A stretch of DNA of 64,000 nt from Patescibacteria group bacterium (GTDB taxonomy: Bacteria > Patescibacteriota > Microgenomatia > UBA10105 > UBA927): contig DATKGN010000004.1 of NCBI GenBank assembly GCA_035510735.1, forward strand, positions 7,436-71,435. The letters are read 5' to 3'. The notes under the pieces are model-generated. The model did not search any database. It saw only the letters and a program-made list of their open reading frames with translations, and was not told where the DNA came from. How positions within the stretch are numbered: position 1 is the first letter of the stretch; each line of letters begins with the position of its first letter. The translations under genes were made by a program, and so were the position numbers. Of the stretch, positions 25,133 to 44,398 are shown piece by piece.

Positions 25133-25780
25133 TTATTGATTGATATACCGAATGACCACGCTGGTGGCATCGCTAACGCCCCGTTGTGCCAGCCAGCTAA
25201 GAAAATTCGTTTTGTTTTGATCGTATGGTTGTGAAAGCATGACCGTGTAGACATCACTGTCATATGAATAATTAACAGCAAAACCCGGCAGTGTTATCGG
25301 TACGCTTTTACGGATATTTTCCAGTGCGGCCCCCTGCGTAGCATACTTTTGTTGATTATTTTGTTCTATCTGATTGAACATCGTGTTCCATCCCGGCGCG
25401 TTATCTATCGCCTGTTGCGTGGTGAACCTTAATATATATGGAGGATTAGTGCTCACGGAAACAGCATATTGGGTTTCCGGCAGGAACATTGATATCGGCT
25501 TGATCTGGATAGAGCTACTTGTGATGCTTATGATGGAAACGTCTGTTGTCGGAGTCACGACGACGGAATATTCTTTTGGTGTGGGGGGGCGATTGAACAC
25601 GATCGTCACGGGTAAAAAGGGGTTGTACGAGGTTCCTTCGGAAGGTGTACTGCTAATGACGGCCAACGGAACGACGGCGGGCGGACGCAATAAAATGTAT
25701 AAAACAATACCCACAACAACAACCAGACTAAATAATACAAGAAGAAGGCGCTGTCTGACAAATTCCAAAAGATTTTTCAT
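25133..25780 (-). CDS. Hypothetical single-pass membrane protein, the last gene of the T4SS-like operon
   Basis: An N-terminal TM helix (LLLVLFSLVVVVGIVLYILL) and a Ser/Thr/Pro-rich extracytoplasmic domain. There is a 4-nt overlap with the upstream gene. Confidence 0.5.
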   Translation of the reverse strand: MKNLLEFVRQRLLLVLFSLVVVVGIVLYILLRPPAVVPLAVISSTPSEGTSYNPFLPVTIVFNRPPTPKEYSVVVTPTTDVSIISITSSSIQIKPISMFLPETQYAVSVSTNPPYILRFTTQQAIDNAPGWNTMFNQIEQNNQQKYATQGAALENIRKSVPITLPGFAVNYSYDSDVYTVMLSQPYDQNKTNFLSWLAQRGVSDATSVVIRYINQ

Positions 25781-28212
25781 TGTGCGGCCCCCTTATTATT
25801 TACGACAAGCCAAATGTTGTCTATATGGTAGTCATAATTAGAAGTTGCCGCGGCGCAGGAATCAACCAAATGGAGCGTTGTGGTCTGTTCCGGGCGGGCA
25901 GGATCGAGTGCGGTTACATCGTTGGTTCCTTTTTGAACGCCGACGATTGCCACAATGTGTCCCGACGGACCGGAATTCGTAAATTTTTCACACCCGCTTG
26001 CGTACACGACGCGCGTACAATCCTGCGGCCGGGATGGGTCGGGTGGCGCATCAAATATACTCTCGAGCTCGTTCGGGTTCATGTGTGTAACACTAAGCCC
26101 TGCGGTCGTCAGGACACCGAAGGATTTGTCATTATCGGTTAGGCAGCTTGGGGCCTCACCCGGCTGAGTGTAAAGATATCCGCCAACCTTATGCTGCTGA
26201 ATCCAGACGTCTACAACCGTGTGTTGTAGGCCAAAACCATTTAGTATCTCCGTCATCGTGGCGCTTCCACACCCCGACGGTCCGATGGCACAGGCGGTGT
26301 TTGGGGCGGTACAGACGCCAACATTGGGGTCAGGGTTTACCGCCGCGCACGTAATACCGCTCCACGCGGAATCGTACTGATATATGTGGGCGTTTGTAAA
26401 ATTCGGACAGATCAACGTAACCTGCGGGGAAGCGCCTTCAACTCCTCCCAAATCTGCCGGGATAAAATTCATCTGATTCGCCTTGTTTTGTGCGGCCGCC
26501 GTCGACCAGAGGAGCACTGCTACGCCGATGGCCAATAGGGGAGCAAGGTATAACGGATTATCATACCACTCTCTTTTTGGCGCGGGTGCGGACAGATAGC
26601 TCTGGATAAGTTCGCCAATTCCGCGGCTTGCAGCGGCCACCCCGCGGTTTGCGCCGGTTGCGACCCAGTTGCCGACCGCGGCGAGCGCCCCCTTTATTTT
26701 ATCCCAGAAGGCGGTTGCAATAAAAACAGCCCACCCCAGGGGGCCTGATAGCCACTCTGCTGCGGCCGCAGGCAAAAATGTACTTAAAAATTTGAGCGCC
26801 GCTCCCTGGGCCGCTTCGCGCGTAAACGTGCCAACAGTCCCGCCCGCCGCCGTTTCGGCAGCAGCCGCGCCGCCGCCCGCCGCTTTATTTACCCCCAGGC
26901 CCACGAGCCAATCCAAAGGAGAAGCTCCCGCCGGAAAAAGCTCCGGATGCCGGCCGTAGGCGACAGAAGCTGCAATCTTGTTTGGATTAAAGTCGGGACT
27001 CGGCTGAAACGTCTGAAGCTCTATGTAATCATACATTTCTTTATTTGAAACTCCGAACCCGGAGAATCCGCTAAATATATTGCTAATGCCACCGCCCCGG
27101 CGCTCTGAAAACTGCTTGTTTCCCTCCATCACCAGAGAATCAAGCGCCTCTTTGTTGACGCCCCGACGGGTCATTTCTTCGACAAATCCCTCGGCTTTTG
27201 TTGCGCCCTCCCAGGTCCTTGCAACAACGTCAGTTATGGTTGTCTGGGTAACGCCGGGGAACACCGTTCTCGCAGCATCAACGAAGGCGCTGTTCATTCG
27301 CGCAATCGGCTGTTTTATAAAACTTTCGGGCGCATTTACGACCGTTGCCATGCGCGACAACCGGATTGCGTCCTCCGCTTTGTCTCCACGCGCAATGGAT
27401 TCAAAAATAATATTAGGGGTAGTTATTTCCGGATTTTTAGCGACGACGTCGATGGATTGAGCAATAGCTGCGAAATCGCGGTCGAGGCCCGTCTCTTCGC
27501 AATATTCGGCAGCCGCACGCTGCGCTTCCTGCTCGTTGGCCGCACCCGTCTTTTGCAGTCGTCTTGATATTTCTGCGCGGGCTTCGTCTGGTGTTAATTG
27601 TGTGAAAGGTTTGTCGATTTCCCGCTTTGCCGCTTCTAATTCTTCCTTCGTTCCGTAGACTTTTTTCTCCTCCAGAATTTTAAAGAACCTCACGACCTTT
27701 GTGTCCGTTTTTTGACGTATTTGTTGAACCGTTGATATCGTCTCCTCCCATGCTTTATCCCGGACCGCACCGCTAACAACCTCAATGGGCGTGCTTTGAT
27801 CAAGTTTTTCGTCGGCTTGTTTAAATTGTGTAAGGTTGCCGGCTCCCTCGGGAACGGGCTCCACTGCAGCGACAAGCTCCGGGCTGTTTGAAACAAGACC
27901 TTTTATGTCAACCACCGCCTCGACGGGCGACTCTGACACCAGCTTCACGACGAATTCAGGGTGGGCGGAAAAATATGCGCGATATTCTTTGTATCCTTCA
28001 GCTTGCCGCAAAAACTCTTTGACCGTGATTCCTTCACCTTTCGTGACGGCATTGTTGTCATTTATCTTGCCCAGGATTTCTTTTGAGAACGCTAAGGCAG
28101 ACTGTTCTTTTGTCTTCTTCGCCCGAGAGTTGGCGGTGTTAACCGTTTGATTTTCTGCCTCCTTGGAAAAAGCATTCGGGGATAGTGTTGTTGCATCAGC
28201 ATCTGTTGCCAT
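25777..28212 (-). CDS. T4SS-associated bitopic protein. It has an N-terminal charged cytoplasmic domain, one TM helix, and a C-terminal papain-like (C39/CHAP-like) Cys/His domain that is a cell-wall hydrolase candidate.
   Basis: 811 aa. The TM helix is LYLAPLLAIGVAVLLWSTAAAQ near residue 540. The C-terminus has SGCGSATMTEILNGFG (Cys nucleophile context) and a downstream SGHIVAIVGVQ (His context). This resembles the peptidoglycan hydrolases of Gram-positive conjugation systems such as PrgK CHAP. The domain assignment is inferred. Confidence 0.5.
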   Translation of the reverse strand: MATDADATTLSPNAFSKEAENQTVNTANSRAKKTKEQSALAFSKEILGKINDNNAVTKGEGITVKEFLRQAEGYKEYRAYFSAHPEFVVKLVSESPVEAVVDIKGLVSNSPELVAAVEPVPEGAGNLTQFKQADEKLDQSTPIEVVSGAVRDKAWEETISTVQQIRQKTDTKVVRFFKILEEKKVYGTKEELEAAKREIDKPFTQLTPDEARAEISRRLQKTGAANEQEAQRAAAEYCEETGLDRDFAAIAQSIDVVAKNPEITTPNIIFESIARGDKAEDAIRLSRMATVVNAPESFIKQPIARMNSAFVDAARTVFPGVTQTTITDVVARTWEGATKAEGFVEEMTRRGVNKEALDSLVMEGNKQFSERRGGGISNIFSGFSGFGVSNKEMYDYIELQTFQPSPDFNPNKIAASVAYGRHPELFPAGASPLDWLVGLGVNKAAGGGAAAAETAAGGTVGTFTREAAQGAALKFLSTFLPAAAAEWLSGPLGWAVFIATAFWDKIKGALAAVGNWVATGANRGVAAASRGIGELIQSYLSAPAPKREWYDNPLYLAPLLAIGVAVLLWSTAAAQNKANQMNFIPADLGGVEGASPQVTLICPNFTNAHIYQYDSAWSGITCAAVNPDPNVGVCTAPNTACAIGPSGCGSATMTEILNGFGLQHTVVDVWIQQHKVGGYLYTQPGEAPSCLTDNDKSFGVLTTAGLSVTHMNPNELESIFDAPPDPSRPQDCTRVVYASGCEKFTNSGPSGHIVAIVGVQKGTNDVTALDPARPEQTTTLHLVDSCAAATSNYDYHIDNIWLVVNNKGAAQ

Positions 28213-28218
28213 GGCGGT

Positions 28219-30174
28219 TTACTCTGTGTCGTTTACCGTTTCTATTGTAAATATCGGACGGTTTGCATTGGGCGTAGTCGCTACAGGCGGGTTTAAGGGC
28301 GGTGACTGTGTCACAGATGTCACCGGTGGTGACGATGTGGCCACCGATGGGTGCGCCTCAACGATCGGCGATTCTGCCTCCTTTTGTTTTCTCATTGCTT
28401 CGAGATCCTGCGGTTTTGTAGTAATAAGTGCATGTTCCTGCGGCGAGGATATGACCCGCATGGCGGCGTGTGACGGCCCCGCGAAAAACAACCCCTCGCC
28501 GACATTTGACGCCAGGAGCAGGTGCTTCTCTCCTTCGGAAAGGAAAAATATTTCCGCAATCCGGTCGATGGCGGCGGAGGATTGTTTGAGGAGTATTTGT
28601 AAACTGCTGTTTTGTATGATGGTTTTCCCGAGATCGACGGACAAGAAATCTTCGACATCCTGTGTAATCGTCGTTAGTCCCAGGTAGTATTTTCTGGCCC
28701 GCTTTGCAATTGAATTTAAGAACGCGCCTGAGTCAGGATATTTCATCATGTACCACGCCTCATCAACAATGAGAATCCGCCGTTTTGTATTGCGCCGAAC
28801 CTTCGTCCATATAAAATCCAATATGAGATACATAGCGATGGGCCGGAGTTCGTCCTCAAGATCGCGGATGGAAAACACGGTTAACTGATTCCGTATTTCT
28901 ACGTTTGTCTGCTGGTCAAATATTCCGACGAGGCTTCCTTTAACGAATTTTTCAATTCGGTCGGCAAGCCCCCTTGCCGTGACGTCTTCCATGCCGACGA
29001 GCGTTTTATAGAGGTCTTCCATGAGCGGCGGTTCTTTGGCTTGGGTTTCAGGATCAGGCGTAATACCTTTTTGTTTATAGGCAAGGATAAGCGCGCGATC
29101 GAGGAGGGCGTCCTCTGACGGCGTGAGCTTCCCCATGACGACGCGGAAAAAACCGTGGAGCGAAAGTATTTTTTGATTGAGCTCGCTGTCTTCCTGGATT
29201 ACTCCTTTTTGGTGGAGAAGGGCAAGGTCAAAAGGGTTTATTTTTGTCGCGGCTCCGAAGTGAAAGCGGATGTATTCGCCGCCCAAGGCATGGGTCAGCG
29301 TCTCATACTCATTCTCGGGATCGATCACGATAACCTCGGTGTCAAACATCAGGCTCCGCAGTATTTCAAGCTTTACCATGTAGCTTTTTCCTGATCCTGA
29401 TTTCCCAAATACGACGGTATTTGCGTTTTCAAGCGTAAACCGGTCAAAGATGATCAAGCTGTCATTATGTTCATTGATGCCGTAGAGAATTCCTTCGTTG
29501 GCGGTAAGCTCCGACGTGGTAAACGGAAACGTTGTTGCAAGCGAGGTCGTATCCATATTGCGCGTGATAACAAGGCGGTCTTGACCCATCGGAAGCGTAG
29601 TTTTCAGGCCCTCCTCCATTTGGAGCGTTGCACGTTTCGTGACGATGAGGAGGGAGGCGAGCGTTGCCTCCACCTGTTTTGATGTTTTATTGAGATCCTC
29701 AAGAGATCGCGCGGGGATGGTCACGTAAAGACCGAATTGAAAAAACCTTTGGGCGCCTTTGGCAAGTTCCTGTTGAAGCGAGAGAGCGTCCTCAAGCGCC
29801 ACCTGGACGGACGGTTCAATCACCCGCCCGCGCTTCATATCCGATTGAATGGTGGCCTCCATCTCGCCGACTTTCCGCTTCAGGTTCTCCAGCACCTCTT
29901 CGCTCCGCGTCGGATACACAAACATAGAAATTTCAAGCGTATGGTTAAATGAAATGAGCGGTTCAAGCCAATTGGCGCTTACGAACCGTGGGTATCCGGC
30001 GACAAACAGCGTGCGGTAAAAGTAGGTACCGATCTTTAGGAAATCAAAATCGACTTCAATTGCGGGCGGAGCGATAATATCTTTTACCGAGAGCGGCGTA
30101 TTTGAGTCTCCCGGCTTCAGGTCGTCGCTCGGCATCGGATCAAGAATTTTTTTAAGAACGGGCGGGATGTCCAT
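28219..30174 (-). CDS. virB4: VirB4/TrbE/CagE-family T4SS ATPase (C-terminal ATPase portion)
   Basis: Walker A is VVFGKSGSGKSYMVKLEILRS. Walker B is RRILIVDEAWYMM. The surrounding VirB4 blocks EVIVIDPENEYETLTHALGGEYIRF and ITQDVEDF are present. Confidence 0.85.
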   Translation of the reverse strand: MDIPPVLKKILDPMPSDDLKPGDSNTPLSVKDIIAPPAIEVDFDFLKIGTYFYRTLFVAGYPRFVSANWLEPLISFNHTLEISMFVYPTRSEEVLENLKRKVGEMEATIQSDMKRGRVIEPSVQVALEDALSLQQELAKGAQRFFQFGLYVTIPARSLEDLNKTSKQVEATLASLLIVTKRATLQMEEGLKTTLPMGQDRLVITRNMDTTSLATTFPFTTSELTANEGILYGINEHNDSLIIFDRFTLENANTVVFGKSGSGKSYMVKLEILRSLMFDTEVIVIDPENEYETLTHALGGEYIRFHFGAATKINPFDLALLHQKGVIQEDSELNQKILSLHGFFRVVMGKLTPSEDALLDRALILAYKQKGITPDPETQAKEPPLMEDLYKTLVGMEDVTARGLADRIEKFVKGSLVGIFDQQTNVEIRNQLTVFSIRDLEDELRPIAMYLILDFIWTKVRRNTKRRILIVDEAWYMMKYPDSGAFLNSIAKRARKYYLGLTTITQDVEDFLSVDLGKTIIQNSSLQILLKQSSAAIDRIAEIFFLSEGEKHLLLASNVGEGLFFAGPSHAAMRVISSPQEHALITTKPQDLEAMRKQKEAESPIVEAHPSVATSSPPVTSVTQSPPLNPPVATTPNANRPIFTIETVNDTE

Positions 30175-30179: not shown

Positions 30180-30839
30180 TTATTGTTCTGCCACCGCCTT
30201 TTGTATGGTCTCTGTGTCAGGGGGCGGAACCCCGGGATTATATGCTGTAAAAAACAACCGAACGAGCTGTTCATTGTCCAACTGATGTGCGCGTAGGCCG
30301 ACACGGCTTAACAGCCGTATTATTTGATCGCGCTTGGGATTAAGGACGATAAGCGCCTTTTCATATATATAGGATCTTGGGTACGGCAAGCCCCGTTTTT
30401 TGCTTCCGAATAACACGCTCGGCGAGCTTCCGAGCTCAAGACTCGAAAACGGGAGGACGATGAAAAAGTTTTTATCCAACACATCCTTTTCCTTCACGGT
30501 TGCCGCGACGAACAAACGGTAATCATGAATGCTTTTGGTGAGTTTTGGGTTTTTCTCCTTCCGTTCCTGATCTTCAAGAAGTCTGAGGTACGCTGTGACA
30601 TCTTTGTGTTGCGTCCTGATCATGAGTTGGATGGGGAATGACAAGGAATTTAAAAGTCCCGCGTACGCAGAGATCATGGCATCCTGCTCTTTTTCCGATA
30701 GCAGGCCGAAGTTTACCGCCGTTGTTGTCACGACCATCGCACACGATCCGTCGGCAAACATGATGATATCATGATCGACGGCTTCGATTTCGGTAAATAT
30801 CTGTGATGATGATTTAATAGGAACAATCGGTGGGTTCAT
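30180..30839 (-). CDS. VirB4 N-terminal-domain-like protein (CagE_TrbE_VirB-type), separated from the ATPase ORF
   Basis: IIMFADGSCAMVVTTTAVNFGLLSEKEQDAMISAYAGLLNSLSFPIQLMIRTQ matches the conserved VirB4/TrbE N-terminus (DGS..a...G.d......e....l...l.....). It ends 5 nt before the ATPase ORF and in a different frame. Confidence 0.55.
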   Translation of the reverse strand: MNPPIVPIKSSSQIFTEIEAVDHDIIMFADGSCAMVVTTTAVNFGLLSEKEQDAMISAYAGLLNSLSFPIQLMIRTQHKDVTAYLRLLEDQERKEKNPKLTKSIHDYRLFVAATVKEKDVLDKNFFIVLPFSSLELGSSPSVLFGSKKRGLPYPRSYIYEKALIVLNPKRDQIIRLLSRVGLRAHQLDNEQLVRLFFTAYNPGVPPPDTETIQKAVAEQ

Positions 30840-32254
30840 GGTGTCGGTTTTCCAAAAATTTCTTTTTCAAGCTTTTCCCGGTTTACCTGTTTTTGGCTTT
30901 TTGCGATAATCTCGAGAGCCGGCACGATAGAGCCATTGAGCGTGATCTGCACGCGGTCAAAGATATATCGGACTCTCGGGTCCTCGATCTCGACGAAGTA
31001 GACGCCGTTTGCCAGGGGCGTTGACGCAGCAAACTGGCCAAGCCGGTTTGTTTTTAGCGCCCGGAGAGGGACTCCCTCTTTATCTTTTACTGTGACAAGT
31101 ACTCCGGGAAGGAATATGTTGTCACCGTCTTTAATAATCCCCGTGACGATATTCGGAAACGATGTGAGTCTGGGGAGGCCGACCCTCACCGCGCTTTCTG
31201 GGGTTATAATTTTTACCGTCGGCTGTCTTGTTACATTTGGAGAAGCCACATGTGTTCCCGATTGGCTTTGCACAACTGGCGCCGGTTTGGGCACTATGGG
31301 TGGTGGTGTAGTCGCGAGCGGATTGGCTGCCGCCTGACGCCGAAGCGCGGTCAGCTCCCGCTCCATGGTTTCGCGTTCTCCAAGCAACTCTGTTAACTGT
31401 TTTTGGAGTTCTAATACGCGCGCCTCGGTCATGGATGAGCTTGCAAGATCTTTTTTAAGCAATACAACCTGCTGTTCCAGCGCTTCTTCTTTTTGTTTGG
31501 TTTGTTCGATAGCTTCTGGAGTTGGCTTTGGCGTTGCAGGGCGGACAATCGGAGGAGGAGAAAAATCAATGTGTTTACCGGTTATCGATGGAATCGGATA
31601 GTTGGTGGTTGTAACGTTTGCATTCATCATTGTTGGTTTGGGAGTCGAAAACGTAAACAGGCCGGCGAGCCACCCCCACGCGGATTGTTTTGGATGGACC
31701 GTTACAATAGTCGGTTTCTGTGGTTGTGTCACGGGTCCCGGAGACGGTTGCGGAATTGTTTGCGTGTGGGCACCGGGAAACACGCTTTGTAAAATATCTG
31801 CTATCGGACGCGCTCCCTGTGTCGCGGTAGATGCGGCGACGCTTGAGGGGCGCTGCTGTGGAGATGGTTGTGGTTTCGCTGGTTGTATATGTTGAGCCCG
31901 CAGCACAGGTGGTGCGGGGGGTGCTGCCTGTTTGGCTGCCAATTGAGCAACGGGGGGAGCAGGCGTAACCCCTCGCGCCCATACGAATTGTGTGGGACTG
32001 TAGACGCTTTTAATAAACGACAACACCCAGATATCCATCGGACGTTCCTCGACGGGGACAAATGCGAACCCGACGCCGCCGATAGCAAAAACGGTAGTCA
32101 GGGGCCAGGTAAAAAAGAAAGGAAGCGGCAGTTTAAATGATATATATGCCAATATAGCGCCCCCGGCGAGATATCCGAACTGTTTAATCGTCATGTCGCC
32201 GATAAGGCGGAATTGAAATGTTGTGACGTTTTGAGGGACAGGATGCTGTTCCAT
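30836..32254 (-). CDS. PrgI/VirB3-like T4SS membrane protein fused to a Pro/Ala-rich low-complexity linker, a coiled coil and a C-terminal beta-sandwich (carboxypeptidase-regulatory/PEGA-like) domain
   Basis: The N-terminus is FQFRLIGDMTIKQFGYLAGGAILAYISF, with two TM helices and VPVEERPMDIWV, a PrgI-like pattern. Residues about 100-230 are P/A/Q-rich. The C-terminus is GVYFVEIEDPRVRYIFDRVQI. Confidence 0.45.
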   Translation of the reverse strand: MEQHPVPQNVTTFQFRLIGDMTIKQFGYLAGGAILAYISFKLPLPFFFTWPLTTVFAIGGVGFAFVPVEERPMDIWVLSFIKSVYSPTQFVWARGVTPAPPVAQLAAKQAAPPAPPVLRAQHIQPAKPQPSPQQRPSSVAASTATQGARPIADILQSVFPGAHTQTIPQPSPGPVTQPQKPTIVTVHPKQSAWGWLAGLFTFSTPKPTMMNANVTTTNYPIPSITGKHIDFSPPPIVRPATPKPTPEAIEQTKQKEEALEQQVVLLKKDLASSSMTEARVLELQKQLTELLGERETMERELTALRRQAAANPLATTPPPIVPKPAPVVQSQSGTHVASPNVTRQPTVKIITPESAVRVGLPRLTSFPNIVTGIIKDGDNIFLPGVLVTVKDKEGVPLRALKTNRLGQFAASTPLANGVYFVEIEDPRVRYIFDRVQITLNGSIVPALEIIAKSQKQVNREKLEKEIFGKPTP

Positions 32255-34987: not shown

Positions 34988-35054
34988 ATATTTTGAATTT
35001 TGCATTTAGAGTTTTGAATTTATTTTGAATTTTGGATTTGGGATTTGGAATTTT

Positions 35055-35650: not shown

Positions 35651-35896
35651 ATGCTCATGACTACGATATCCATTTCACAGCTTAAAATAAATCCATCATC
35701 TGTTATCGCTCAGGCGGTAGATTATCCTGTGGTGGTAGAAAACCGCAATAAAGTGCAGGCGTATCTTGTGGGAAAAACATTGTTTGAAAAAATTATTGCA
35801 CTTCTTGAAGAGAAAGAGGATGTGGCCGCTGTGAAAAACACTGATTTTTCTAAAGGCAGGAATTTCGATGATGTAGCCCAAGAGCTGGGGTTATGA
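35651..35896 (+). CDS. Type II antitoxin, Phd/YefM family
   Basis: 81 aa. The N-terminus is MTTISISQLKINPSSVIAQAVDYPVVVENRNKVQAYLV (Phd/YefM fold pattern), with an acidic C-terminal tail. The stop overlaps the toxin start (ATGA). The translated start is more likely ATG 35657. Confidence 0.65.
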   Translation: MLMTTISISQLKINPSSVIAQAVDYPVVVENRNKVQAYLVGKTLFEKIIALLEEKEDVAAVKNTDFSKGRNFDDVAQELGL

Positions 35897-36156
35897 ATAT
35901 TCTGATATCGCCTCGAGCGGAGAAAGAGCTCAAAAAGCTTCATAAATTTGATCAAATTGCCGTTGTTCAAAAAATACGCTCTCTTCGACTCTCAACGCCG
36001 CATGGAGAAGAACGGCTAACCGGATATCCACATATATTTCGTGTTCGCGTAGGAAATTATCGGATTGTATACCGTAAAACACGAGACGACATATATATCA
36101 TTCTCATCCGTCACCGGAAAGACGTCTATAAAAAGCTTACGGACCTGTTGGGATAG
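35893..36156 (+). CDS. Type II toxin, RelE/ParE family
   Basis: 87 aa. HIFRVRVGNYRIVYRKTRDDIYIILIRHRKDVY is the typical RelE/ParE C-terminal pattern. Confidence 0.75.
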   Translation: MNILISPRAEKELKKLHKFDQIAVVQKIRSLRLSTPHGEERLTGYPHIFRVRVGNYRIVYRKTRDDIYIILIRHRKDVYKKLTDLLG

Positions 36157-36228: not shown

Positions 36229-36360
36229 TGGACAAATTATCGATTAACAATAATATTTCCTCGACAAAGATCAGGGAACGGGTGGGCCGCGGCCTCCCGA
36301 TTGACCAGTTTGTGCCGCCTGCGGTTGCGAAGTATATTCAAGAACACAAGCTTTATACAT
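36229..36360 (+). pseudogene. Orphan 3' fragment of a second nadD allele (about 44 codons, ending TAA)
   Basis: It translates as VDKLSINNNISSTKIRERVGRGLPIDQFVPPAVAKYIQEHKLYT*. This is about 75-80% nucleotide identity to nadD 35497-35615 (IGSNISSTKIRDRVGEGLPIDQFVPKAVAEYIDSHSLYKTT*). There is no 5' portion. Confidence 0.75.
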
Positions 36361-36428: not shown

Positions 36429-39400
36429 ATGCCTGAAGATACCAACGAAAAGACGCCGATATTGCTTCTGAAGAAATTGTTAGAGGGGAAGCAGCCGCCC
36501 CCGGATCGTGGTGCAGACGGCCCGTTAACGGTTAAAGGCGTCCAAAGCCGCGATTTTGCCAGGCGTGAACAAAATGCCAAGGAATTGAAAAGCACCCAAG
36601 AGAGCAAAGGACCAAAACCTGAAACAGGAGTGAAGCCAAAAACGGAAGCAATTTCGGATAAATATAAGGAAGAGTTGGTCCGGAGCGGAACGCCGCTAAC
36701 GATAGAAAAAAAACTACAGATCATTGAGCATGAAGTGCCGGAAGCAAAAACGCTGGCCCTCAAACGACAATTTGAAGAGTTAAAGAACGAAATCCGCAAT
36801 AATCCTCAGGGTCCGGATTCACGGGGGAGAATACAATCTATCGTAAAAGGTATTCAAACCGACGCGGCTGTGGACAAAGACCTCAATGAGGTGGCACAGG
36901 AGATTACGCAATCCACCTACAACCACATTATGCGGAATAAAGCATATATGGTGGGCATCTCAATAGACGACCGCGCGGAAATGGGCGTGACATTTATAGA
37001 CGCCAAGTCTTCTCGTATTTATGAAGACGAGAATTATTTGCGCGATATTGGAGAAAACATACTCCGTCGGCCGTTAACAGCAGCAGATATTCAGGCTGAG
37101 GTTCAGGTTTCGGAGGATTTGGTAAAACATCTCAATGCCGGAGGTGATGAGGCGGATGTGGATTTGGTCGTTAAAACCATGCGGCCGGTTGAAAAATTGG
37201 ATGAAAAGACCGCCCGACAAAAGATTGCGGAAGGGCCCAGGTGGGTGAAAGATGCGGCAAGTAAAATTACCCGCGATTCGTACGCATTATCATTCCTCGG
37301 CGAGATGTCTGATGTGTACAAAATGAATCCTGATTTAGTTGATGATCCCACAAAGCTTAACCCCGCGCTATTGTTCACCAAAGGCGTACAGCTCCGTGTG
37401 GATAACGGTGAATTTTATACGTCGCAGGGCGAGTCTTCTGATGTCATGGCGCAAATGCAGGAAGGCACTTCAGTTCGCGATACGGTGGTCGATCAAGTCA
37501 AGCTGGCCATTGAGGGCAGGCCGATGTTTACCAGCGACCGCTGGGATGAACATTTATATCTCATGAGCGAGCCTAAGGCGTTTGCATTGGGAGCAGGAGT
37601 GGATTATGAATGGGATTCGGCGGCAGAACCCGTTCGTGCCGGCGCCCTGAAGGACCGTCTTGACGAATTTAATTCTTACGTTCACTCTCTGACCGGGGAT
37701 GTCGACGAGCAGGTTTATAAACTATACGGCGATTTACATCATGATTATCGCGCTGACTTGACGCTTGTTCCGAATCTTGTCGATAGGCTCGCAAAAAGGA
37801 TAGATGAAGTATCCAAGCTAAACGCGGAAAGACATAAAGCATTCAGCAACCTTTACTTCGAATACGTCGACCAAATGCCGGTATATCGGAACCCGGCTCT
37901 CGCTCTTCGTGAGACGCAGGACTATTACAATGAGTTGTCCCGCTTATATCCAAACACGTTCCAGGAATCGGTTGAGCGGAACCGTCAAAACATGATTTCA
38001 TTTTTAAACAGCCCGCATTTCCAGGCAGACTGGAAAGCGTTTTTTGACGATGATAAAAATTGGGGTTTCATCAATGAGGGCTACGACCCTGCGTATAAAA
38101 TTACCGTTAGAGCCGATCTTGATAAGCACCCTATGTATAAAGTCCTTAAAGATAAAAATGAATGGGCAAAATACCGTGGACAACTCGTTGACTCGTTCAC
38201 ACAAGGGGATTTATTGCAGCGCGGCGTCACAACGTTTAAGACTTCCGAAATAGAAAAAATGAGAGGCATCAATGCGTCTATCGGTGAGAAAGGGCAGATT
38301 ATATTACGGCGGGACAGAGGGGGGATCAATAATCGGGCATATTTGATTATGGATCGAAAAGGAGAATTTTCCCGTTTTGACAACGACGGAGATGAAGCGG
38401 TAGCGAGCGGACCAAATTTGAAACGGGCGGTGAATAAGGCGAAGCACGAAATGAAGAAATATAAAGAACATTATTTGCCAAAATTAGCGAAAGTATACGG
38501 TCCGAATGTTGATTTTGACACCATGGTAGATGCCGCGGTCGACGAAATGTATTCGCAGCAGATTATTGAAACGCGTCGCGCTGAGTGGATGGAATGGGGG
38601 GCGCCGATTTGGAAAGTTGGAGGGCAAAAAGATAACCCATTCATGTTTGCCGGCTTGGGCCCTGAAGCTAACGTGTTGACTGCCTGGCGCCCAATTGATG
38701 AGCTAATGGAACGCTGGGGGACGATAAGCGCTTCCGGCCGCCACGTGATTGAAGAGGCCGCTAAGAGCGATGTGATGCGTCTGAGTATTGATAAATATGT
38801 CGACCCCGCGTTGGACAAAATTGATCTGCGCACCGCGAAAGGAAAACAGGATTTCCGGCGACTTGTAAAAAATTATTTAGGAATTGTTGAGCCCGAGACC
38901 TCACCTAGATACGCGGCTATTGAACAGCAACGTCTTGTGTTTTTTGAAATTGATGAGCACGGGATTGACCTGAAGGAGCAATTACGAAATCCGACGTCAA
39001 TAGATAAATTGACCAAGAAAGACCTCCGGCGGCTGATGACGTTCACTCTGGCGAAACGCGCCGCAACAGACAGGGAGGCAACCGGCGCGTACCGGTATCG
39101 TTCGGCGTCCTGGAATGCAGACACGATGATTCAGGTTATGGACAAAAAGTACACTGGGCATAACGAAGTTTTATTACAGGAACGACTGTCGCGAAAAGTT
39201 GCTGATTTGTTTAACCCCGAAATTTCACATGATAGTATTGAGAATGCACAGTTTACTCTCACACACATTGTCCCAGAAGATCCGACAAGCGGAATGCTCC
39301 TTAAATTAGGAGAGTATTCGCCCATGCACGCGGTCGATGCGCTACAGTCGGAGTGTGATATTGAAATATTGGAATTTATTAACCGGGAGATTCCTGCAGC

Positions 39401-40490
39401 AAACCATGCGTATCATGATCCTGAAGAAGCAGGTCTCAACGCTATCGGTCCTGGCAGGCGAGATCTTTTTATGGAGCGTTTTATCATGCGTCAAGATATG
39501 ATAAATGCCGATTGTGCGGAAGCAGGAGAAATGCCCTGGAATTTTTCAAAACCAATCGCGGCTCACACCCCAAGACAAATAGCTATTGCAGCTGAAATAT
39601 GTCGGATTACCCAAACGGATATGAACGAATTTTTTGCGCTCGGCGGACGTATTTCAGAGCATGTTTTAGAACCTGAAACATTAGAGTCTCTCTCAAATCC
39701 CGCGATCGCGCAGTATTTTTTAGTCGTTCACGATCAGGATCCACGATATATAGAGTTAGATGACGGGGTCCCCGGGGATCCTGAATTTCAATATTCCCTC
39801 CAAATTGCTAAAGATGATTACGCAGGGAACAATGGAATCTATCGCAACCTAAACGATACAGTAAATGCGGCAGGTGGCGTGGTAAAGGATTTTAAACCAA
39901 TGGTTGAGGCGGGTGATGAAAAGACATTTACAGGGCATCGTGAAGCGTTTTATGCGATGACAGAAATGGTCGGCGGCTACAATACGAAAGCAGTCAATAA
40001 TCTGAAATGGACGGCAGCATGGTACGGGATGGTACGGATGGATTACGGGAAGGACATTGTGGGTATGAAGGGGGAACATCCATTTTTCCCCATGTCTGAT
40101 CACCAACGAATAGTGGGTATAGGCGGATTAGCCCTGCCTCTTGAGAAGGTGGATCTTGCATGGCATGCTGCGGACGTTGCAACAGGCGGAAAATTTCATA
40201 AATTATTTCCGCATTTAACTCATGTAACCATGAAACGATTGAACCTCATCGCCGCCGAGATTGGTTGGCCTAATTTTTTACAGGATTTTGGCAAAGCTAT
40301 TACGAAAAGGACTGGATGGAGGGGAGTAGAACGACTATTTCATCACAAATTTGAAATTCAGACCGTTTGGGTCCCGCGCGCAGTGGCATTGGCCGGTTTG
40401 GCCGTGTTATTATGGGGAACTCAAACTTGGAGTAATTTGAAAAAGGGATTTTCCGGGAACTCCTCACACGCACAACCGGAACACGGTTAA
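36429..40490 (+). CDS. Giant hypothetical protein (1353 aa) embedded in the T4SS cluster. It is mostly hydrophilic and helical, with one C-terminal TM helix.
   Basis: It is an uninterrupted 4.06-kb ORF. The N-terminus is charged and K/E-rich. There are no recognisable NTPase, relaxase (HUH) or peptidase motifs. The C-terminal TM helix is AVALAGLAVLLWGTQTW. It sits between the virD4-like and virB6-like genes. Confidence 0.6.
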   Translation: MPEDTNEKTPILLLKKLLEGKQPPPDRGADGPLTVKGVQSRDFARREQNAKELKSTQESKGPKPETGVKPKTEAISDKYKEELVRSGTPLTIEKKLQIIEHEVPEAKTLALKRQFEELKNEIRNNPQGPDSRGRIQSIVKGIQTDAAVDKDLNEVAQEITQSTYNHIMRNKAYMVGISIDDRAEMGVTFIDAKSSRIYEDENYLRDIGENILRRPLTAADIQAEVQVSEDLVKHLNAGGDEADVDLVVKTMRPVEKLDEKTARQKIAEGPRWVKDAASKITRDSYALSFLGEMSDVYKMNPDLVDDPTKLNPALLFTKGVQLRVDNGEFYTSQGESSDVMAQMQEGTSVRDTVVDQVKLAIEGRPMFTSDRWDEHLYLMSEPKAFALGAGVDYEWDSAAEPVRAGALKDRLDEFNSYVHSLTGDVDEQVYKLYGDLHHDYRADLTLVPNLVDRLAKRIDEVSKLNAERHKAFSNLYFEYVDQMPVYRNPALALRETQDYYNELSRLYPNTFQESVERNRQNMISFLNSPHFQADWKAFFDDDKNWGFINEGYDPAYKITVRADLDKHPMYKVLKDKNEWAKYRGQLVDSFTQGDLLQRGVTTFKTSEIEKMRGINASIGEKGQIILRRDRGGINNRAYLIMDRKGEFSRFDNDGDEAVASGPNLKRAVNKAKHEMKKYKEHYLPKLAKVYGPNVDFDTMVDAAVDEMYSQQIIETRRAEWMEWGAPIWKVGGQKDNPFMFAGLGPEANVLTAWRPIDELMERWGTISASGRHVIEEAAKSDVMRLSIDKYVDPALDKIDLRTAKGKQDFRRLVKNYLGIVEPETSPRYAAIEQQRLVFFEIDEHGIDLKEQLRNPTSIDKLTKKDLRRLMTFTLAKRAATDREATGAYRYRSASWNADTMIQVMDKKYTGHNEVLLQERLSRKVADLFNPEISHDSIENAQFTLTHIVPEDPTSGMLLKLGEYSPMHAVDALQSECDIEILEFINREIPAANHAYHDPEEAGLNAIGPGRRDLFMERFIMRQDMINADCAEAGEMPWNFSKPIAAHTPRQIAIAAEICRITQTDMNEFFALGGRISEHVLEPETLESLSNPAIAQYFLVVHDQDPRYIELDDGVPGDPEFQYSLQIAKDDYAGNNGIYRNLNDTVNAAGGVVKDFKPMVEAGDEKTFTGHREAFYAMTEMVGGYNTKAVNNLKWTAAWYGMVRMDYGKDIVGMKGEHPFFPMSDHQRIVGIGGLALPLEKVDLAWHAADVATGGKFHKLFPHLTHVTMKRLNLIAAEIGWPNFLQDFGKAITKRTGWRGVERLFHHKFEIQTVWVPRAVALAGLAVLLWGTQTWSNLKKGFSGNSSHAQPEHG

Positions 40491-40493: not shown

Positions 40494-42035
40494 CTATTCT
40501 CCACCCCCACCATGCGAAGGAGGGCTTTTTTGGCCGGTTACGCGGTCCCATATCTGACTTGGCCAGAGAGACTTGATGTAATATGCCATTGATAGTGTTT
40601 GCAATGCTCCTCCTCCTGCCCCTCCCGTGTCGAACATTGGCATAACGGACTTTGCCTTGAGCGCTTCTTTGACCGAGCCTGCAACAGAGGGTATGGCAAA
40701 TAAGATGCCAAGCGAGATGAGTGCGCCGATTGCCGTTGTGTTACTTACAATACTCGTGTACGGCGGTACCCAAAGGTTTGTTGGTCCTCCTGAAATGCCG
40801 CCGTTTGAGAAATTAGCAAATACGGAGGAGAGCATAAACATAGCGCCTCCGATAGGGAAAACCGCGAGATTTGCTGCAAGATTTTTAATCCACGATGAGA
40901 ACGAATTAGATCCTGGGAGCGCCTCCATGAGTAATTGGAGTGGCGCCAATAGCAGCGAGATAATTATCTGGATATAAGAAGTAAGGAAGAATCCAAGCAA
41001 TCGAAGAAAGAGGAATAGTATAACGATGGCTAAAATTAAATGGACGAGCGGTAACCCGAGTCCGGCGAGACCTATCACGACTCCGGCTCCGCCTATCGGC
41101 GTGCCCGCGCCGGCAATGGCAGCTATTCCGCCGATAACTGCGCCTATAGAAGACACCATGAGGGCGGTACCGGAATTTACATTATAGCCCAAAAATTTAA
41201 GCGGGTTTATATCCACGTTGAAAAACTGTGCTCCAATGCCGCCCTGGCCGTAGAGCGCGTCATTTGTCGTAATATGATATATGCTTTGCACCTGCGCGCT
41301 CGGCGCCGGCAGATAATTTGGAATTGATTTAAAAATGGCAACGATAAAGAAAATAAGAAGATACATGATATCAATCATAAATCCGACGATTGCATAGGAA
41401 AATGTGATGAGGATAAGCGCGATGATGACACGGGGGATTGCATTTTGTGCCGTGACGACGGTTTTGGGATCAATTTTTTTCCTGAGCATGATCATAAACC
41501 CGAGAACGATCATGACAAGCGCCATAAGGAGGTAGGCGATATTCCGGAACGCTTTCCAGATGGGAAGAAGGGGTTCGAGGCCGCTGAATCCAATCCCTTG
41601 TGCATACGCCTGATCGGGGATAAATCCGAGAGAATGACCCATATCGGCTAAAAACAAACCGGAGTCGGCGGGTTTCGTTGTATACATGTCAGCAATAACG
41701 CCGCCAAGTTGCATTGCCGTGCTTCCGTTAAGGCACGTGGTAAAGTCTGTTTGTGTTTTTGCACCCGATATACAGACTGACTTGTCGATCATATCAGCGA
41801 TGTCATACGCGTTATTGGTGTTTTGGAAATGGACGGTTGATTCGGAATTAATCGAAGCCGTTCCATACACCGCGGCATTGGTATCTTGTGTAGTCGGGAA
41901 TTTCCAGGAATTAATGAGATTGGTGATAGCTGTAATCGGGTTTGCCGGGGCCGGTTGAGCAAAAACGACGCTTTTGGGTGCAAGAAATGCGAGCGAACAG
42001 AGAAGAATAAAAAACACGAGCAGACGTTTTAGCAT
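40494..42035 (-). CDS. VirB6/TrbL-like polytopic T4SS membrane protein with an N-terminal secreted domain
   Basis: It has a signal peptide (MLKRLLVFFILLCSLAFLAPKSVVFA) and an extracytoplasmic domain of about 150 aa. Six or more TM helices (LMALVMIVLGFMIMLRKK...IIALILITFSYAIVGFMIDIMYLLIFFIVAIF...) have interspersed Gly-rich loops. It lies immediately adjacent to the VirB2-like pilin array. Confidence 0.55.
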   Translation of the reverse strand: MLKRLLVFFILLCSLAFLAPKSVVFAQPAPANPITAITNLINSWKFPTTQDTNAAVYGTASINSESTVHFQNTNNAYDIADMIDKSVCISGAKTQTDFTTCLNGSTAMQLGGVIADMYTTKPADSGLFLADMGHSLGFIPDQAYAQGIGFSGLEPLLPIWKAFRNIAYLLMALVMIVLGFMIMLRKKIDPKTVVTAQNAIPRVIIALILITFSYAIVGFMIDIMYLLIFFIVAIFKSIPNYLPAPSAQVQSIYHITTNDALYGQGGIGAQFFNVDINPLKFLGYNVNSGTALMVSSIGAVIGGIAAIAGAGTPIGGAGVVIGLAGLGLPLVHLILAIVILFLFLRLLGFFLTSYIQIIISLLLAPLQLLMEALPGSNSFSSWIKNLAANLAVFPIGGAMFMLSSVFANFSNGGISGGPTNLWVPPYTSIVSNTTAIGALISLGILFAIPSVAGSVKEALKAKSVMPMFDTGGAGGGALQTLSMAYYIKSLWPSQIWDRVTGQKSPPSHGGGGE

Positions 42036-42074: not shown

Positions 42075-42497
42075 CTACCTTTTAGGAAGAACTCCTGCGC
42101 CTGCGGATGGATTTCCTGCGGATGGATTTCCGGCTGGAATAGTGAACTTGAGAATCTGCGGTACGCCGGTGAATACGCTGATGATGCGGATGATGAGGAA
42201 CGCAGCGACAATGACAACAAGACCGATCACCGCGTTCGTGAGCGTCCCCCTGGCCTGTTCCAGTTTTTTCTGATCGCCCTGAGAAAATAAAAAGGAAAAC
42301 CCCGCAATAACAAACATGAGAAGAAGCGCAACGCCAGCTAGAGCGATCACGACATTGACGACATTGGTAAATAGCCCCTCAAGCGATTGAACGGTAGCGA
42401 CATCACCCTGTTGTAAATTCGGAAGTACGGCGGCATACACCGGGGACCCAAGAAAGAATACTAACGGGCTCATGAACACATGGACGACTTTACGCAT
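42075..42497 (-). CDS. VirB2/TrbC-like T4SS pilin-family small membrane protein (copy 1). The C-terminus carries a GNPSAGNPSAG tandem repeat.
   Basis: The core is ALAGVALLLMFVIAGFSFLFSQGDQKKLEQARGTLTNAVIGLVVIVAAFLIIRII. The motif is shared with the other copies (two hydrophobic helices flanking the G-D-x-K-K/x-L-E/x-A-R loop). Confidence 0.6.
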   Translation of the reverse strand: MRKVVHVFMSPLVFFLGSPVYAAVLPNLQQGDVATVQSLEGLFTNVVNVVIALAGVALLLMFVIAGFSFLFSQGDQKKLEQARGTLTNAVIGLVVIVAAFLIIRIISVFTGVPQILKFTIPAGNPSAGNPSAGAGVLPKR

Positions 42498-42549: not shown

Positions 42550-42888
42550 TTAATTGCCGTATGGTTTCGGGAAGTTAAGCGCTCCGCCGATGATCGTGAC
42601 GCCCAGGAAGTTCTGGACCAAGAGCATCACCGCCCACGCCGCGCCGACGATGATGAGTCCGACGATGGCATGAGTAATTTTATTGCGAGCTGCCTCCATA
42701 CCGGCCTTATCGCCGCCGGAGGTTATCCACTGGATACCTCCCAGGATTAGGAAGAAAAATGCTAAAAGTGCAGCGATGATAAGGAGTGTGCCGACGAGAG
42801 CACTGATAAGCTGACCGATGTCAGTAATCCGGAAATTACCCGGTGTCGGGATATTAATTGTCGGATCAGCTGCAAATACCTTAAACAT
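42550..42888 (-). CDS. VirB2-like pilin-family protein (copy 2)
   Basis: LLAFFFLILGGIQWITSGGDKAGMEAARNKITHAIVGLIIVGAAWAVMLLV. Confidence 0.6.
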   Translation of the reverse strand: MFKVFAADPTINIPTPGNFRITDIGQLISALVGTLLIIAALLAFFFLILGGIQWITSGGDKAGMEAARNKITHAIVGLIIVGAAWAVMLLVQNFLGVTIIGGALNFPKPYGN

Positions 42889-42990: not shown

Positions 42991-43356
42991 TTATTGACCC
43001 GGGACAGCCGTTGGTATCGGGAGTTTTGTCAGATCGAGTCCAAAGAAATTGGCGATCAACACGGAGAGCGCCCACGCGGCGCCGACAACAACTAATCCGA
43101 TGATCGCGTTGGTTATTTCATCCCGCGCCTTTTCCAGTTTCGTTTTATCGCCGCCTGAGGTAATCCATGTAAATCCGCCCATGACTAAAAAGATGAGCGA
43201 GAGAAGAAAGCCGGCGATAAACAGCGCGCCGACAAGCCCACTGACCAAACCGCCGAGCGCCGAACCACCCTGATCCTGACTCGTGGAGATCTTGGTCCCG
43301 CCGAGACCCGTCGGGAGTACAGGATTCACGATCTGGGCAAGTAGGTGGGTAATCAT
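42991..43356 (-). CDS. VirB2-like pilin-family protein (copy 3)
   Basis: FIAGFLLSLIFLVMGGFTWITSGGDKTKLEKARDEITNAIIGLVVVGAAWALSVLI. The start was placed at an internal Met to remove the overlap with copy 4. Confidence 0.6.
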   Translation of the reverse strand: MITHLLAQIVNPVLPTGLGGTKISTSQDQGGSALGGLVSGLVGALFIAGFLLSLIFLVMGGFTWITSGGDKTKLEKARDEITNAIIGLVVVGAAWALSVLIANFFGLDLTKLPIPTAVPGQ

Positions 43357-43360
43357 AAGA

Positions 43361-43732
43361 TTAGTGTATTTGTAAGTTTGTAATAAATGCTCCCGGATCG
43401 ACAAGTGTATTAAATCCAAAGAACTGGCCGACCACAGCGGTCAGGCTCCATGCACCAACGACGATCACAAGGCCGATAAACGCATGAACGATGCGGTCCC
43501 GTGCGCTTGCTATTTTTTTGGTATCGCCGCCTGCCGACGTCCATTCGTAGCCGGCGAAAAGGATCATGAATAAAAACCAGATGCTCGCACAGATCGTCAG
43601 CATGCCGACAATAGAACTGATAATATTCAAAATACCAGTCAAACCTGCGTTTGGGCCAACGCTTTTACCGAATGGGCCTAATCCTTCTCCTCCGATTGTT
43701 CCAAGTCCTGTACCCTGTGCTAAGAGTTTCAT
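43361..43732 (-). CDS. VirB2-like pilin-family protein (copy 4)
   Basis: ASIWFLFMILFAGYEWTSAGGDTKKIASARDRIVHAFIGLVIVVGAWSLTAVV. Confidence 0.6.
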   Translation of the reverse strand: MKLLAQGTGLGTIGGEGLGPFGKSVGPNAGLTGILNIISSIVGMLTICASIWFLFMILFAGYEWTSAGGDTKKIASARDRIVHAFIGLVIVVGAWSLTAVVGQFFGFNTLVDPGAFITNLQIH

Positions 43733-43738: not shown

Positions 43739-44083
43739 TTATTGTCCCGGGCCGTATATAGTCGGTGACAGGATGAATGTTGCGCTTCCAAATACGATTT
43801 GGCCGACGAGTGCGGCAAGCGCAAACGATCCGATGACGATAATAATTCCAAGGAGCGAGTACCAAATGCGGTCAAGAGCAGCAGATAGAGCCTTAGAATC
43901 ACCCGCAGCACTCATGTATTGGAATCCGGCGATGATGAAGTTAATAAACGCGTAGATGCCGGCGATCACGAAAACAAGGCGCAAAATATTCGTAAAAAAT
44001 AAAATAAGCCCACCATTCGCGCCCGTGAGGCTTTGATATGGTCCGGGAAGCGGATTTGTGACATGACCGACAATTTGATCCAT
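43739..44083 (-). CDS. VirB2-like pilin-family protein (copy 5)
   Basis: IAGIYAFINFIIAGFQYMSAAGDSKALSAALDRIWYSLLGIIIVIGSFALAALV. Confidence 0.6.
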   Translation of the reverse strand: MDQIVGHVTNPLPGPYQSLTGANGGLILFFTNILRLVFVIAGIYAFINFIIAGFQYMSAAGDSKALSAALDRIWYSLLGIIIVIGSFALAALVGQIVFGSATFILSPTIYGPGQ

Positions 44084-44086
44084 AGG

Positions 44087-44398
44087 TTATTTCGGCAATA
44101 GAATAAGTCCTGTTAATTTTTCAACAATTTGTATAATCCAGAATGATCCGACGATGATGATAAGCCCTATGACAGCACCCGTGATTGCTTTTTTACCTTC
44201 CTCCAGCTTCTTCGTGTCACCGGATCCTCCTGCCATTATCATACCAAATCCACCGAAGACCAACAAAGCAAACATAATAACTCCGGCGATGACGAATGCG
44301 TTTTTTGCAACAACCGTCACAAGACTCCCGATATCGGTGAAATGGGTAATGGAGGGGAATGAGCTCTGGAGGTCGACTTCCGCATAAACCTGCTGCAT
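44087..44398 (-). CDS. VirB2-like pilin-family protein (copy 6)
   Basis: AGVIMFALLVFGGFGMIMAGGSGDTKKLEEGKKAITGAVIGLIIIVGSFWIIQIV. Confidence 0.6.
   Translation of the reverse strand: MQQVYAEVDLQSSFPSITHFTDIGSLVTVVAKNAFVIAGVIMFALLVFGGFGMIMAGGSGDTKKLEEGKKAITGAVIGLIIIVGSFWIIQIVEKLTGLILLPK

Follow-up and report, generated by a model that had tools for sequence, protein, structure and literature searches.

The 64,000-nucleotide stretch of DNA analyzed here (hereafter the window) belongs to a Candidatus Gottesmanbacteria (Microgenomatia) metagenome-assembled genome (MAG), and its positions 25133 to 44398 almost certainly hold a chromosomal, origin-adjacent type IV secretion system (T4SS)/pilus locus of the kind already published for the ultra-small Patescibacteria, a group that also bears the name Candidate Phyla Radiation (CPR); the locus is a further example of that system. 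The listing of open reading frames (ORFs) and the family scans recovered each component that an earlier note had read from the sequence of this cluster: a PrgI/VirB3-like protein, a VirB4 in two ORFs, an 811-residue protein with a hydrolase domain (p811), a VirD4-like ATPase, a VirB6-like protein and six VirB2-like pilins. The ATPase that defines a T4SS, a member of the VirB4 family, is present as a 651-residue protein. Pfam and NCBIfam models support the assignments of VirB4, PrgI, the type IV coupling protein (T4CP) and the pilins, but the VirB6-like candidate (p513) has no match to a hidden Markov model (HMM). The gene set and the origin-proximal position match those reported for Patescibacteria (PMC12102498, PMC10633639), in agreement with the earlier suggestion of a minimal, CPR-type chromosomal T4SS of a monoderm. 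We have very little doubt about this identity. The function is a matter of prediction from the genes: a role as a pilus or host interface is likely, the explanation developed below, anatomy and proposed working taken together, is the best available and rather more probable than its failure, and the export of protein cargo is put forward tentatively.

The cluster is core chromosome. A scan of a genome collection with the window VirB4 returned 432 relatives, and the best 80 loci (61–98% VirB4 identity) were kept for synteny counts. These come from Gottesmanbacteria, then from Woese-, Curtiss-, Shapiro- and Chisholmbacteria MAGs, all of them Microgenomates, or from MAGs with placeholder titles (the record title "uncultured Gammaproteobacteria" in some MAG sets is apparently such a placeholder); judged by sequence identity, the nearest relatives of the window VirB4 appear to be those of MAGs from Gottesmanbacteria and further Microgenomatia. 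Every locus with enough flanking sequence keeps the order dnaA-dnaN-[two fast-evolving ORFs]-VirB4-TrsD-PrgI. When the window proteins were compared with the 80 loci by tblastn, matches were found to TrsD and PrgI in 79 loci each, to dnaN in 54, to dnaA in 53, to the T4CP in 37 and to nadD in 34, as opposed to six for a four-helix-bundle gene and three for a Phd-ParE pair. The correlation of VirB4 identity with that of DnaA is strong (Spearman 0.89, n = 51). The conserved synteny with dnaA-dnaN and the co-divergence of VirB4 and DnaA thus identify the cluster as vertically inherited core chromosome rather than an accessory region, a choice that the earlier note had left to be made; only the toxin-antitoxin pair and the four-helix-bundle gene appear, from their patchy distribution, to behave as insertions.

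The same evidence makes it very improbable that the cluster is a conjugative or mobilisable element, such as an integrative and conjugative element (ICE), or its decayed remnant beside oriC, with an unrecognised relaxase, for example in the 1353-residue protein (p1353) or in an ORF without a Pfam match. VirB4 and a T4CP do occur together here, as in conjugative systems, a toxin-antitoxin pair is present, and several large ORFs have no family assignment. However, the cluster occupies the same chromosomal position in dozens of genomes across the whole range of VirB4 identity while co-diverging with DnaA. Among the window ORFs of at least 100 amino acids, five of which lack any Pfam match, none matched a relaxase, integrase or transposase family, nor was any recombinase found; no inverted repeats or hairpins were found in the intergenic regions of the cluster; and no flanking direct (att-like) repeats were found, the nearest tRNA genes lying at 62 kb. 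ICE boundaries around the cluster were accordingly considered and rejected, with neither repeats nor a tRNA to mark them. In a survey of 3,035 Patescibacteria genomes, relaxases were rare and seldom neighbors of virB4 (PMC12102498). The statements of the earlier note that relaxase and integrase are missing and that this is not a typical conjugative element both stand.

The origin context holds as well. The dnaA and dnaN genes (22453 to 25120, plus strand) end 13 nucleotides before the cluster, and DnaA boxes are clustered in the spacer between them. Box clusters were mapped at 23835–23876 and at 22325–22343, and the cumulative GC-skew minimum falls at about 22–24 kb; the box clusters and the skew minimum, together with the adjacency of dnaA and dnaN, bear out the proposed placement next to oriC, and this context is syntenic with the T4SS.

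Five genes on the minus strand, running from 32254 to 25133, are tightly packed with 4-nucleotide overlaps or 5–6-nucleotide spacers: the 472-residue PrgI, TrsD, VirB4, p811 and p215. Operon boundaries are drawn from gene spacing only, and promoter-like and terminator-like sites in the window showed no enrichment over shuffled sequence. The VirB4-family ATPase (651 amino acids, 28219 to 30174) matches Pfam P-loop_TraG at 5.9e-26 and scores 399 bits, above a cutoff of 325, against the NCBIfam model NF045971 ("VirB4-like, CD1110 family"), a family of the Firmicute CTn2 type; its matches in the PDB are 4AG5 (2.5e-45) and TrwK (1.2e-8). It is missing approximately the first 180 positions of full-length VirB4 profiles. 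The neighboring TrsD-like protein (219 amino acids, 30180 to 30839, minus strand) is a detached N-terminal VirB4 module: on the same full-length VirB4 profile it covers positions 121–288 and the 651-residue protein positions 270–876. The 219-residue protein matches NF045975 at those positions with 2.4e-6 and the TrsD model NF041427 weakly (6e-4), and a precomputed TraC-like match (PF26593) is on record for it, while profile and sequence searches of the PDB gave no meaningful match.

The earlier note had described VirB4 as split into two ORFs. There are indeed two ORFs, but the gene is not broken. An in-frame stop or a pseudogenised VirB4 is ruled out because the 219-residue ORF stops at TAA, a 5-nucleotide spacer follows, VirB4 begins in a different frame, and 78 of 79 relatives encode TrsD and VirB4 in two distinct ORFs, most commonly joined by a 4-nucleotide overlap. 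By this comparison, the "split VirB4" is the old, conserved TrsD/VirB4 arrangement, which is the most abundant T4SS component in Patescibacteria (PMC12102498).

The first gene of the putative operon encodes an extended PrgI/VirB3-like protein (472 amino acids, 30836 to 32254, minus strand), whose PrgI membrane domain leads into a linker rich in Pro and Ala, then a coiled coil and, at the C terminus, a beta-sandwich-like domain. The PrgI domain (PF12666, residues 5–90) scores 32.2 bits against a Pfam gathering score (GA) of 27 (1.6e-7), as expected from the original assignment, and a CarboxypepD_reg-like match at the C terminus (E 9e-4) is below GA. PrgI lies upstream of TrsD in 79 of the 80 loci. 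The extension amounts to about 380 residues and might be a wall-spanning element. In some more distant relatives (e.g., locus L049) the tblastn match to this protein spans only about 350 nucleotides, which suggests that PrgI is short there.

Downstream of VirB4 lies the gene for p811 (25777 to 28212, minus strand), a membrane protein whose N-terminal part, about 440 residues long, is cytoplasmic and is followed by an Ala/Gly-rich hydrophobic segment with a transmembrane (TM) helix at approximately 440–575 and a Cys-rich extracytoplasmic C39-like papain-fold domain at approximately 600–811. When scanned alone, the C-terminal domain matches Peptidase_C39_2 with an E-value of 0.0038, below threshold, and the link to this family runs through the orthologue in locus L020, which scores above the gathering score (26.1 versus GA 24) and to which residues 580–811 of p811 align at 4e-28, with the GCGSA and GH(I/F) motifs conserved. 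The papain-like hydrolase domain read earlier in this protein is upheld by this route. A homologue search with p811 returned no sequences, probably because the list of 8,000 candidates was flooded by Ala-rich words, and profile and sequence searches of the PDB with p811 and with its C-terminal domain gave no meaningful match. In relatives this slot holds a protein of 504–1227 amino acids (372 in one locus), typically with at least one mid-protein TM segment, and among 50 sequences scanned (49 relatives and p811) the C-terminal domain was Peptidase_M23 in 36 and SLT_3 in two, with single cases of CHAP, YkuD and C39_2. The position is that of the VirB1/PrgK-type wall hydrolase, and peptidoglycan hydrolysis is the predicted activity.

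The last gene of the VirB4 operon (p215, 25133 to 25780, minus strand) encodes a bitopic protein with a TM segment at residues 12–30 and a predicted Ig-like beta domain (a weak Big_5 match, E 0.0047). It is identical to NCBI VMR81_01950, annotated as a hypothetical protein. A homologue search returned two proteins, and among the related loci homologues occur in L020 and L074 only. Its position is presumably that of the VirB8-like PrgL in Firmicute systems. The size, topology and position of p215 all fit a VirB8-like protein (PrgL/TraM), but the predicted Ig-like beta domain is not the expected NTF2 fold; comparison of p215 and its positional family with solved VirB8-like chains and with the PDB gave no sequence match, and an AlphaFold2 model built on a two-sequence alignment was unusable (predicted local distance difference test, pLDDT, 52).

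The two genes appear to travel together. The N-terminal part of p811 is related to that of L004 and L006 (~1e-53), both of which have M23 C termini, and the C terminus of p811 and p215 are related to L020; p811 is thus a recombination mosaic with the breakpoint inside the protein. Where the first gene encodes an M23 protein, the second gene encodes 312–392 amino acids in every locus in which a second gene was called, and where the first gene is not M23 the second encodes 138–252 amino acids (12 relatives and the window), both counts being uncorrected for kinship. The long and short partner classes share the TM segment only, and for this reason treating all second ORFs as one family was abandoned. 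The exchange of the hydrolase ectodomain together with its downstream partner gene is a small addition to the known system.

The second putative operon, also on the minus strand, runs from 44398 to 40494 and begins with the six VirB2-like pilin genes (42075–42497, 42550–42888, 42991–43419 with a likely start at 43356, 43361–43732, 43739–44083 and 44087–44398), co-oriented with the gene for p513. Five of the six pilins that the earlier note had counted exceed the gathering score of Pfam T4SS_pilin (PF18895); the sixth (43739–44083) is sub-threshold at 19.7 bits, yet aligns with the others. Divergence within the array is considerable, at 23–35% identity to pilin 1. Two further T4SS_pilin-domain genes (54085 to 55153, minus strand) lie about 10 kb from the main array, divergent from a gene with a SpoIID (peptidoglycan-remodelling) domain (55126–56910, plus strand), and encode proteins of 116 amino acids and of 235 amino acids, the latter with a Cys-rich extension following the signal peptide at its N terminus; pilin-like genes in the window therefore number eight, two of them outside the range covered earlier. 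A gene for an extracytoplasmic function (ECF)-type sigma factor (44424–45029, plus strand) is divergent from the array at a distance of 25 nucleotides from the first pilin gene, and it is possible that this factor regulates the array. A promoter-like TTGACA-18-TACACT lies just upstream of the array at 44435–44406 (minus strand), such sites being no more frequent than in shuffled sequence.

The p513 protein (40494 to 42035, minus strand) is polytopic, with a signal peptide and at least six hydrophobic helices. Although it matched no Pfam or NCBIfam model, it has at least 805 homologues, for none of which a Pfam domain is recorded, and tblastn found it in 39 of the 80 loci. Its AlphaFold2 model, built on a 57-sequence alignment, has a pLDDT of 79.5 and a predicted template modelling score (pTM) of 0.62, and in a Foldseek search of the PDB the eight best matches were all TrwI/VirB6 chains of the R388 T4SS (best E 0.027, probability 1.00, TMt 0.44). 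Given so exclusive a hit list, a polytopic topology and a place behind the pilin array, we call p513 VirB6-like provisionally, on the strength of a predicted fold; the earlier assignment is retained on topology and fold, with weak scores and no HMM match. VirB6 homologues are scarce in Microgenomatia when sought by HMM (PMC12102498), and it is plausible that the p513 family explains this gap.

Divergent from the PrgI operon is the gene for a T4CP/VirD4-like ATPase (729 amino acids, 32396 to 34585, plus strand) with a 330-residue N-terminal domain that has no assignment. The earlier VirD4-like reading is sustained by two T4CP domains above their Pfam gathering scores, TrwB_AAD_bind (30.6 versus GA 20.5) and TraG-D_C (23.8 versus GA 22), and the protein aligns with TrwB at 2.3e-5 over residues 327–384. 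It was found at this position in 37 related loci with 65–96% identity. The T4CP and nadD hold the same position in Gottesman-like loci, mostly those with VirB4 identity of at least about 73%, and are absent at this position in Curtiss-, Shapiro- and Chisholm-like loci.

These components suggest how the system may work. It would derive from the conjugation machinery of monoderm bacteria (the MPF-FATA class), with the DNA-processing part lost. The operon from 32254 to 25133 would form the membrane engine, in which PrgI/VirB3 docks the TrsD and VirB4 ATPase; the extracytoplasmic C39-like cysteine hydrolase of bitopic p811 would open a cell wall, with the small bitopic Ig-like partner p215 following it; and the operon from 44398 to 40494 would supply the six divergent VirB2-type pilins and the VirB6-like platform. 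VirB4 would assemble the pilins on this platform to give a pilus or conduit reaching the host cell, in the manner suggested for R388. The soluble T4CP, whose gene is transcribed divergently, would select a cytoplasmic substrate, and our committed guess is contact-dependent export of protein cargo to a host bacterium or archaeon, which would serve an epibiotic lifestyle.

The likely role at the host interface is consistent with the pattern of conservation. The cytoplasmic ATPases are highly conserved (median identity 74% for VirB4 and 73% for the T4CP), whereas the envelope or exposed parts, i.e., p811, p215, p1353 and the pilins, are hypervariable and mostly undetectable by tblastn in related loci; this is the pattern expected of a host-contact interface. 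Possible T4SS pili have been seen at a parasite-host interface (bioRxiv 10.64898/2026.06.21.733656). The eight divergent pilin genes and the hypervariable exposed parts would also suit an organelle for adhesion only, that is, a variable VirB2 pilus that attaches the cell to its host and translocates nothing, and in model systems VirB4 alone powers pilus biogenesis. However, the conserved T4CP at the locus argues for a substrate, and Patescibacteria already attach by type IV pili (PMC12206443, PMC10633639), which leaves adhesion alone quite improbable.

As to the direction of transport, T4CPs are receptors of export substrates in characterised systems, and we know of no T4CP in the ComB and Ced import systems. 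A machine of the latter kind, in which a VirB4/VirB6/VirB2 apparatus similar to Ced/Ted or ComB draws host DNA or RNA into a nucleotide-auxotrophic cell, is the less favored possibility here. The window encodes no relaxase, and VirB4 and the T4CP have sub-threshold matches to the DNA-import ATPases CedB (8.5e-14) and CedD (2.2e-9), respectively. Reviews propose uptake, with ComEC dispensable and the T4SS essential in Southlakia (PMC11665869, PMC12857230), and a 2026 preprint reports feeding on host RNA and tubular structures at the interface. On the other side, the Ced scores are far under the cutoffs (CedB, 51 bits versus 700; CedD, 36.5 versus 600), no component of the locus was identified as a nuclease or as binding nucleic acids, and the T4CP beside the system is strongly conserved, unlike in the import systems known to us. 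We consider nucleic-acid import unlikely on this balance and lean to protein export, given a conserved T4CP and the lack of a relaxase.

Several observations weigh against the scheme of a T4CP-served, wall-opening exporter. The similarity of the T4CP to known families is confined to the P-loop region and TraG-D_C and is under every NCBIfam T4CP cutoff, and no TM anchor was found in it above the Kyte-Doolittle threshold (19-residue window, 1.6). The fold match of p513 to VirB6 is weak (best E 0.027, TM 0.27–0.44). The C39-like domain of p811 is below the Pfam threshold by its own score and might act as a protease instead of hydrolysing the wall. A VirB8-like component could not be shown for the cluster, either by sequence search or with the p215 model. 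No effector was identified. The directions and cargoes proposed for Patescibacteria T4SSs, that of this organism included, are predictions, and the T4CP homologue of Southlakia is distant from virB4 and not essential, so that the essential function there is independent of a T4CP (PMC12102498).

The locus may be placed among several known systems. The Southlakia epibionticum ML1 T4SS (SEML1_0006-0019) is essential, has pilins and has no recognisable coupling protein or relaxase (Wang 2023, PMC10633639); epibiotic growth depends on this T4SS and on its pilin genes (PMC10633639, PMC12857230; transposon sequencing in PMC10633639), and the peptidase and lysozyme homologues downstream of virB4 are likewise essential in Southlakia (PMC12102498). 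The window locus resembles it in its chromosomal place by dnaA/dnaN, in VirB4 with an adjacent TrsD, PrgI/VirB3 and a provisionally VirB6-like protein, in a putative wall-hydrolase gene directly downstream of virB4, in six divergent VirB2-like pilins and in having no relaxase. It differs in lineage (Microgenomatia/Gottesmanbacteria rather than Saccharimonadia), in a TM-less T4CP directly beside the PrgI operon (distant and non-essential in Southlakia), in the C-terminal extension of PrgI, in a hydrolase ectodomain that is C39-like and not lysozyme or M23, and in including the giant hypervariable p1353. We read the T4CP next to the PrgI operon, the PrgI extension, the hydrolase of C39-like type and the p1353 family as variation on the published system at the level of the lineage. 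In the survey of 3,035 genomes by Quinonero-Coronel (2025), the Patescibacteria VirB4 clade is nested in MPF-FATA, TrsD lies next to VirB4 with PrgI, VirB6, pilin arrays of 2–11 genes at ~25% identity and proximity to dnaA/dnaN, and only 148 of 5,713 T4CPs are near virB4 (PMC12102498).

The window system shares with MPF-FATA members (pCF10 prgH-L, pGO1/pIP501 trsC-D-E-G and CTn2 CD1110) a VirB4 above the CD1110-family cutoff and the lack of outer-membrane components. Its order PrgI-(TrsD)-VirB4-hydrolase-small bitopic protein mirrors, as we take it, prgI-J-K-L and trsC-D-E-(F)-G. Unlike MPF-FATA systems, which have no VirB2-type pilins, the window has eight T4SS_pilin genes, a known departure of Patescibacteria; it also has no relaxase, oriT or adhesin, it is chromosomal and vertically inherited, and its hydrolase combines a long cytoplasmic N terminus with the lack of SLT and CHAP domains. 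According to a 2025 review, the Patescibacteria systems are the only monoderm T4SSs likely to build conjugative-type pili (PMC12857230). Archaeal Ced/Ted and Helicobacter ComB likewise pair a VirB4-like ATPase with VirB2-like pilins and a membrane protein of polytopic type, and have no relaxase, but the window has a conserved T4CP, and its scores to the Ced families are far under the cutoffs. With the R388/Agrobacterium VirB (MPF-T) systems it shares VirB2-type pilins and the predicted VirB6-like fold of p513, with TrwI as the best PDB match, whereas it has no VirB5 or VirB7–11 and a monoderm envelope.

Between the T4CP and p513 lies the gene for p1353 (36429 to 40490, plus strand), which is convergent on the VirB6-like gene and whose product lacks a signal peptide and has a single TM helix, at the C terminus (1310–1328). 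A large ORF of about 600–1400 amino acids stands tail to tail with the p513 gene in about 48 Microgenomatia loci, and 30 of these are connected by single-linkage phmmer. A Pfam scan of 34 proteins from this position found no family in any, a PDB search with the family found no sequence relative, and p1353 itself has only 17 matching clusters among 1.84 billion representatives. By this comparison p1353 is a genuine member of the locus, conserved in position but hypervariable and evolving very fast, and not an interruption.

Two coupled ideas go further and are speculative, with the odds clearly against them: that the exchangeable cassette of hydrolase ectodomain and partner is aimed at the host envelope, and that p1353 is a substrate or effector of the T4SS or else a new structural subunit. 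The exchangeable ectodomain, its pairing with the partner and the breakpoint in p811 would fit a host-envelope hydrolase that is swapped as hosts change and not a housekeeping VirB1. p1353 is tail-anchored, downstream of the T4CP on the same strand and convergent on virB6.

The remaining plus-strand genes lie between the T4CP and p1353. A protein of the four-helix-bundle (23S rRNA IVS protein) family (34610 to 34987, TIGR02436 6.9e-16, GC content 39.7%) is probably not part of the T4SS machine and occurs in 6 loci only. A nadD-like nucleotidyltransferase gene (35025 to 35615), a housekeeping gene, lies beside the T4CP in 34 related loci. Between these two genes, at 34989–35052, are two tandem 32-nucleotide repeats (TATTTTGAATTTTGCATTTAGAGTTTTGAATT, 84% identical), which overlap the listed TTG start of nadD, so that its true start may be further downstream. 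A Phd/YefM-ParE toxin-antitoxin pair (35651 to 36156) is an inserted, patchy cassette found in three loci only (L008, L010 and L048), at the same site; it is bracketed by the true 3' end of nadD (35499–35604) and a diverged, 75–79% identical relic copy (36252–36357), which suggests that recombination brought it in along with part of a relative's nadD. Family scans confirmed nadD, the toxin-antitoxin pair, the four-helix-bundle gene and the 1353-residue gene as interleaved with the cluster, but the earlier description of the cluster as interrupted fits only in part: a patchy distribution is seen for Phd-ParE, in 3 loci, and for the four-helix-bundle gene, in 6, whereas the T4CP (37 loci), nadD (34) and the p1353 position (~48) are conserved.

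To the left of the origin is a glycan-synthesis locus (4000–22232) with two Wzy_C proteins, many glycosyltransferases, a sulfotransferase, a radical SAM/SPASM enzyme and an ABC-2 exporter. The cluster is indeed more GC-rich than this locus, as had been judged by eye (48.5% versus 41.8%, with 45.7% for the whole window), but the contrast mostly reflects the low GC content of the glycan locus and low-complexity coding runs: the GC-rich run at 26600–27000 (62%) codes for the Ala/Gly-rich part of p811, and that at 31200–32000 (54%) for the Pro/Ala linker of PrgI. The glycan locus is the real and larger compositional outlier, and it may have been acquired horizontally. On the other side, a complete mevalonate-pathway operon (46046–54082, plus strand) directly follows the cluster and encodes HMG-CoA reductase, an HMG-CoA synthase-like protein, thiolase, two GHMP kinases (one fused to NUDIX), diphosphomevalonate decarboxylase and undecaprenyl-diphosphate synthase. 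Further along are SmpB followed directly by the transfer-messenger RNA gene (59714–60650, tag peptide AETKLSELDERALYAIAFQRHQAGIALALNA), ComFC, reported earlier at 60.7 kb and confirmed at 60754–61443, and two tRNA-Ser genes (62127–62359).

Few machines are known to be essential to epibiotic life in this very large, uncultivated radiation, and the Patescibacteria T4SS is one of them. For a Microgenomatia lineage, the window shows that this T4SS is core chromosome, that a conserved coupling ATPase is kept and that the exposed parts turn over quickly, and it supplies a fold-level VirB6 candidate for the group. The exposed parts, namely the pilins, the hydrolase ectodomain with its partner and the giant protein, are the place to seek determinants of host specificity and candidate substrates.

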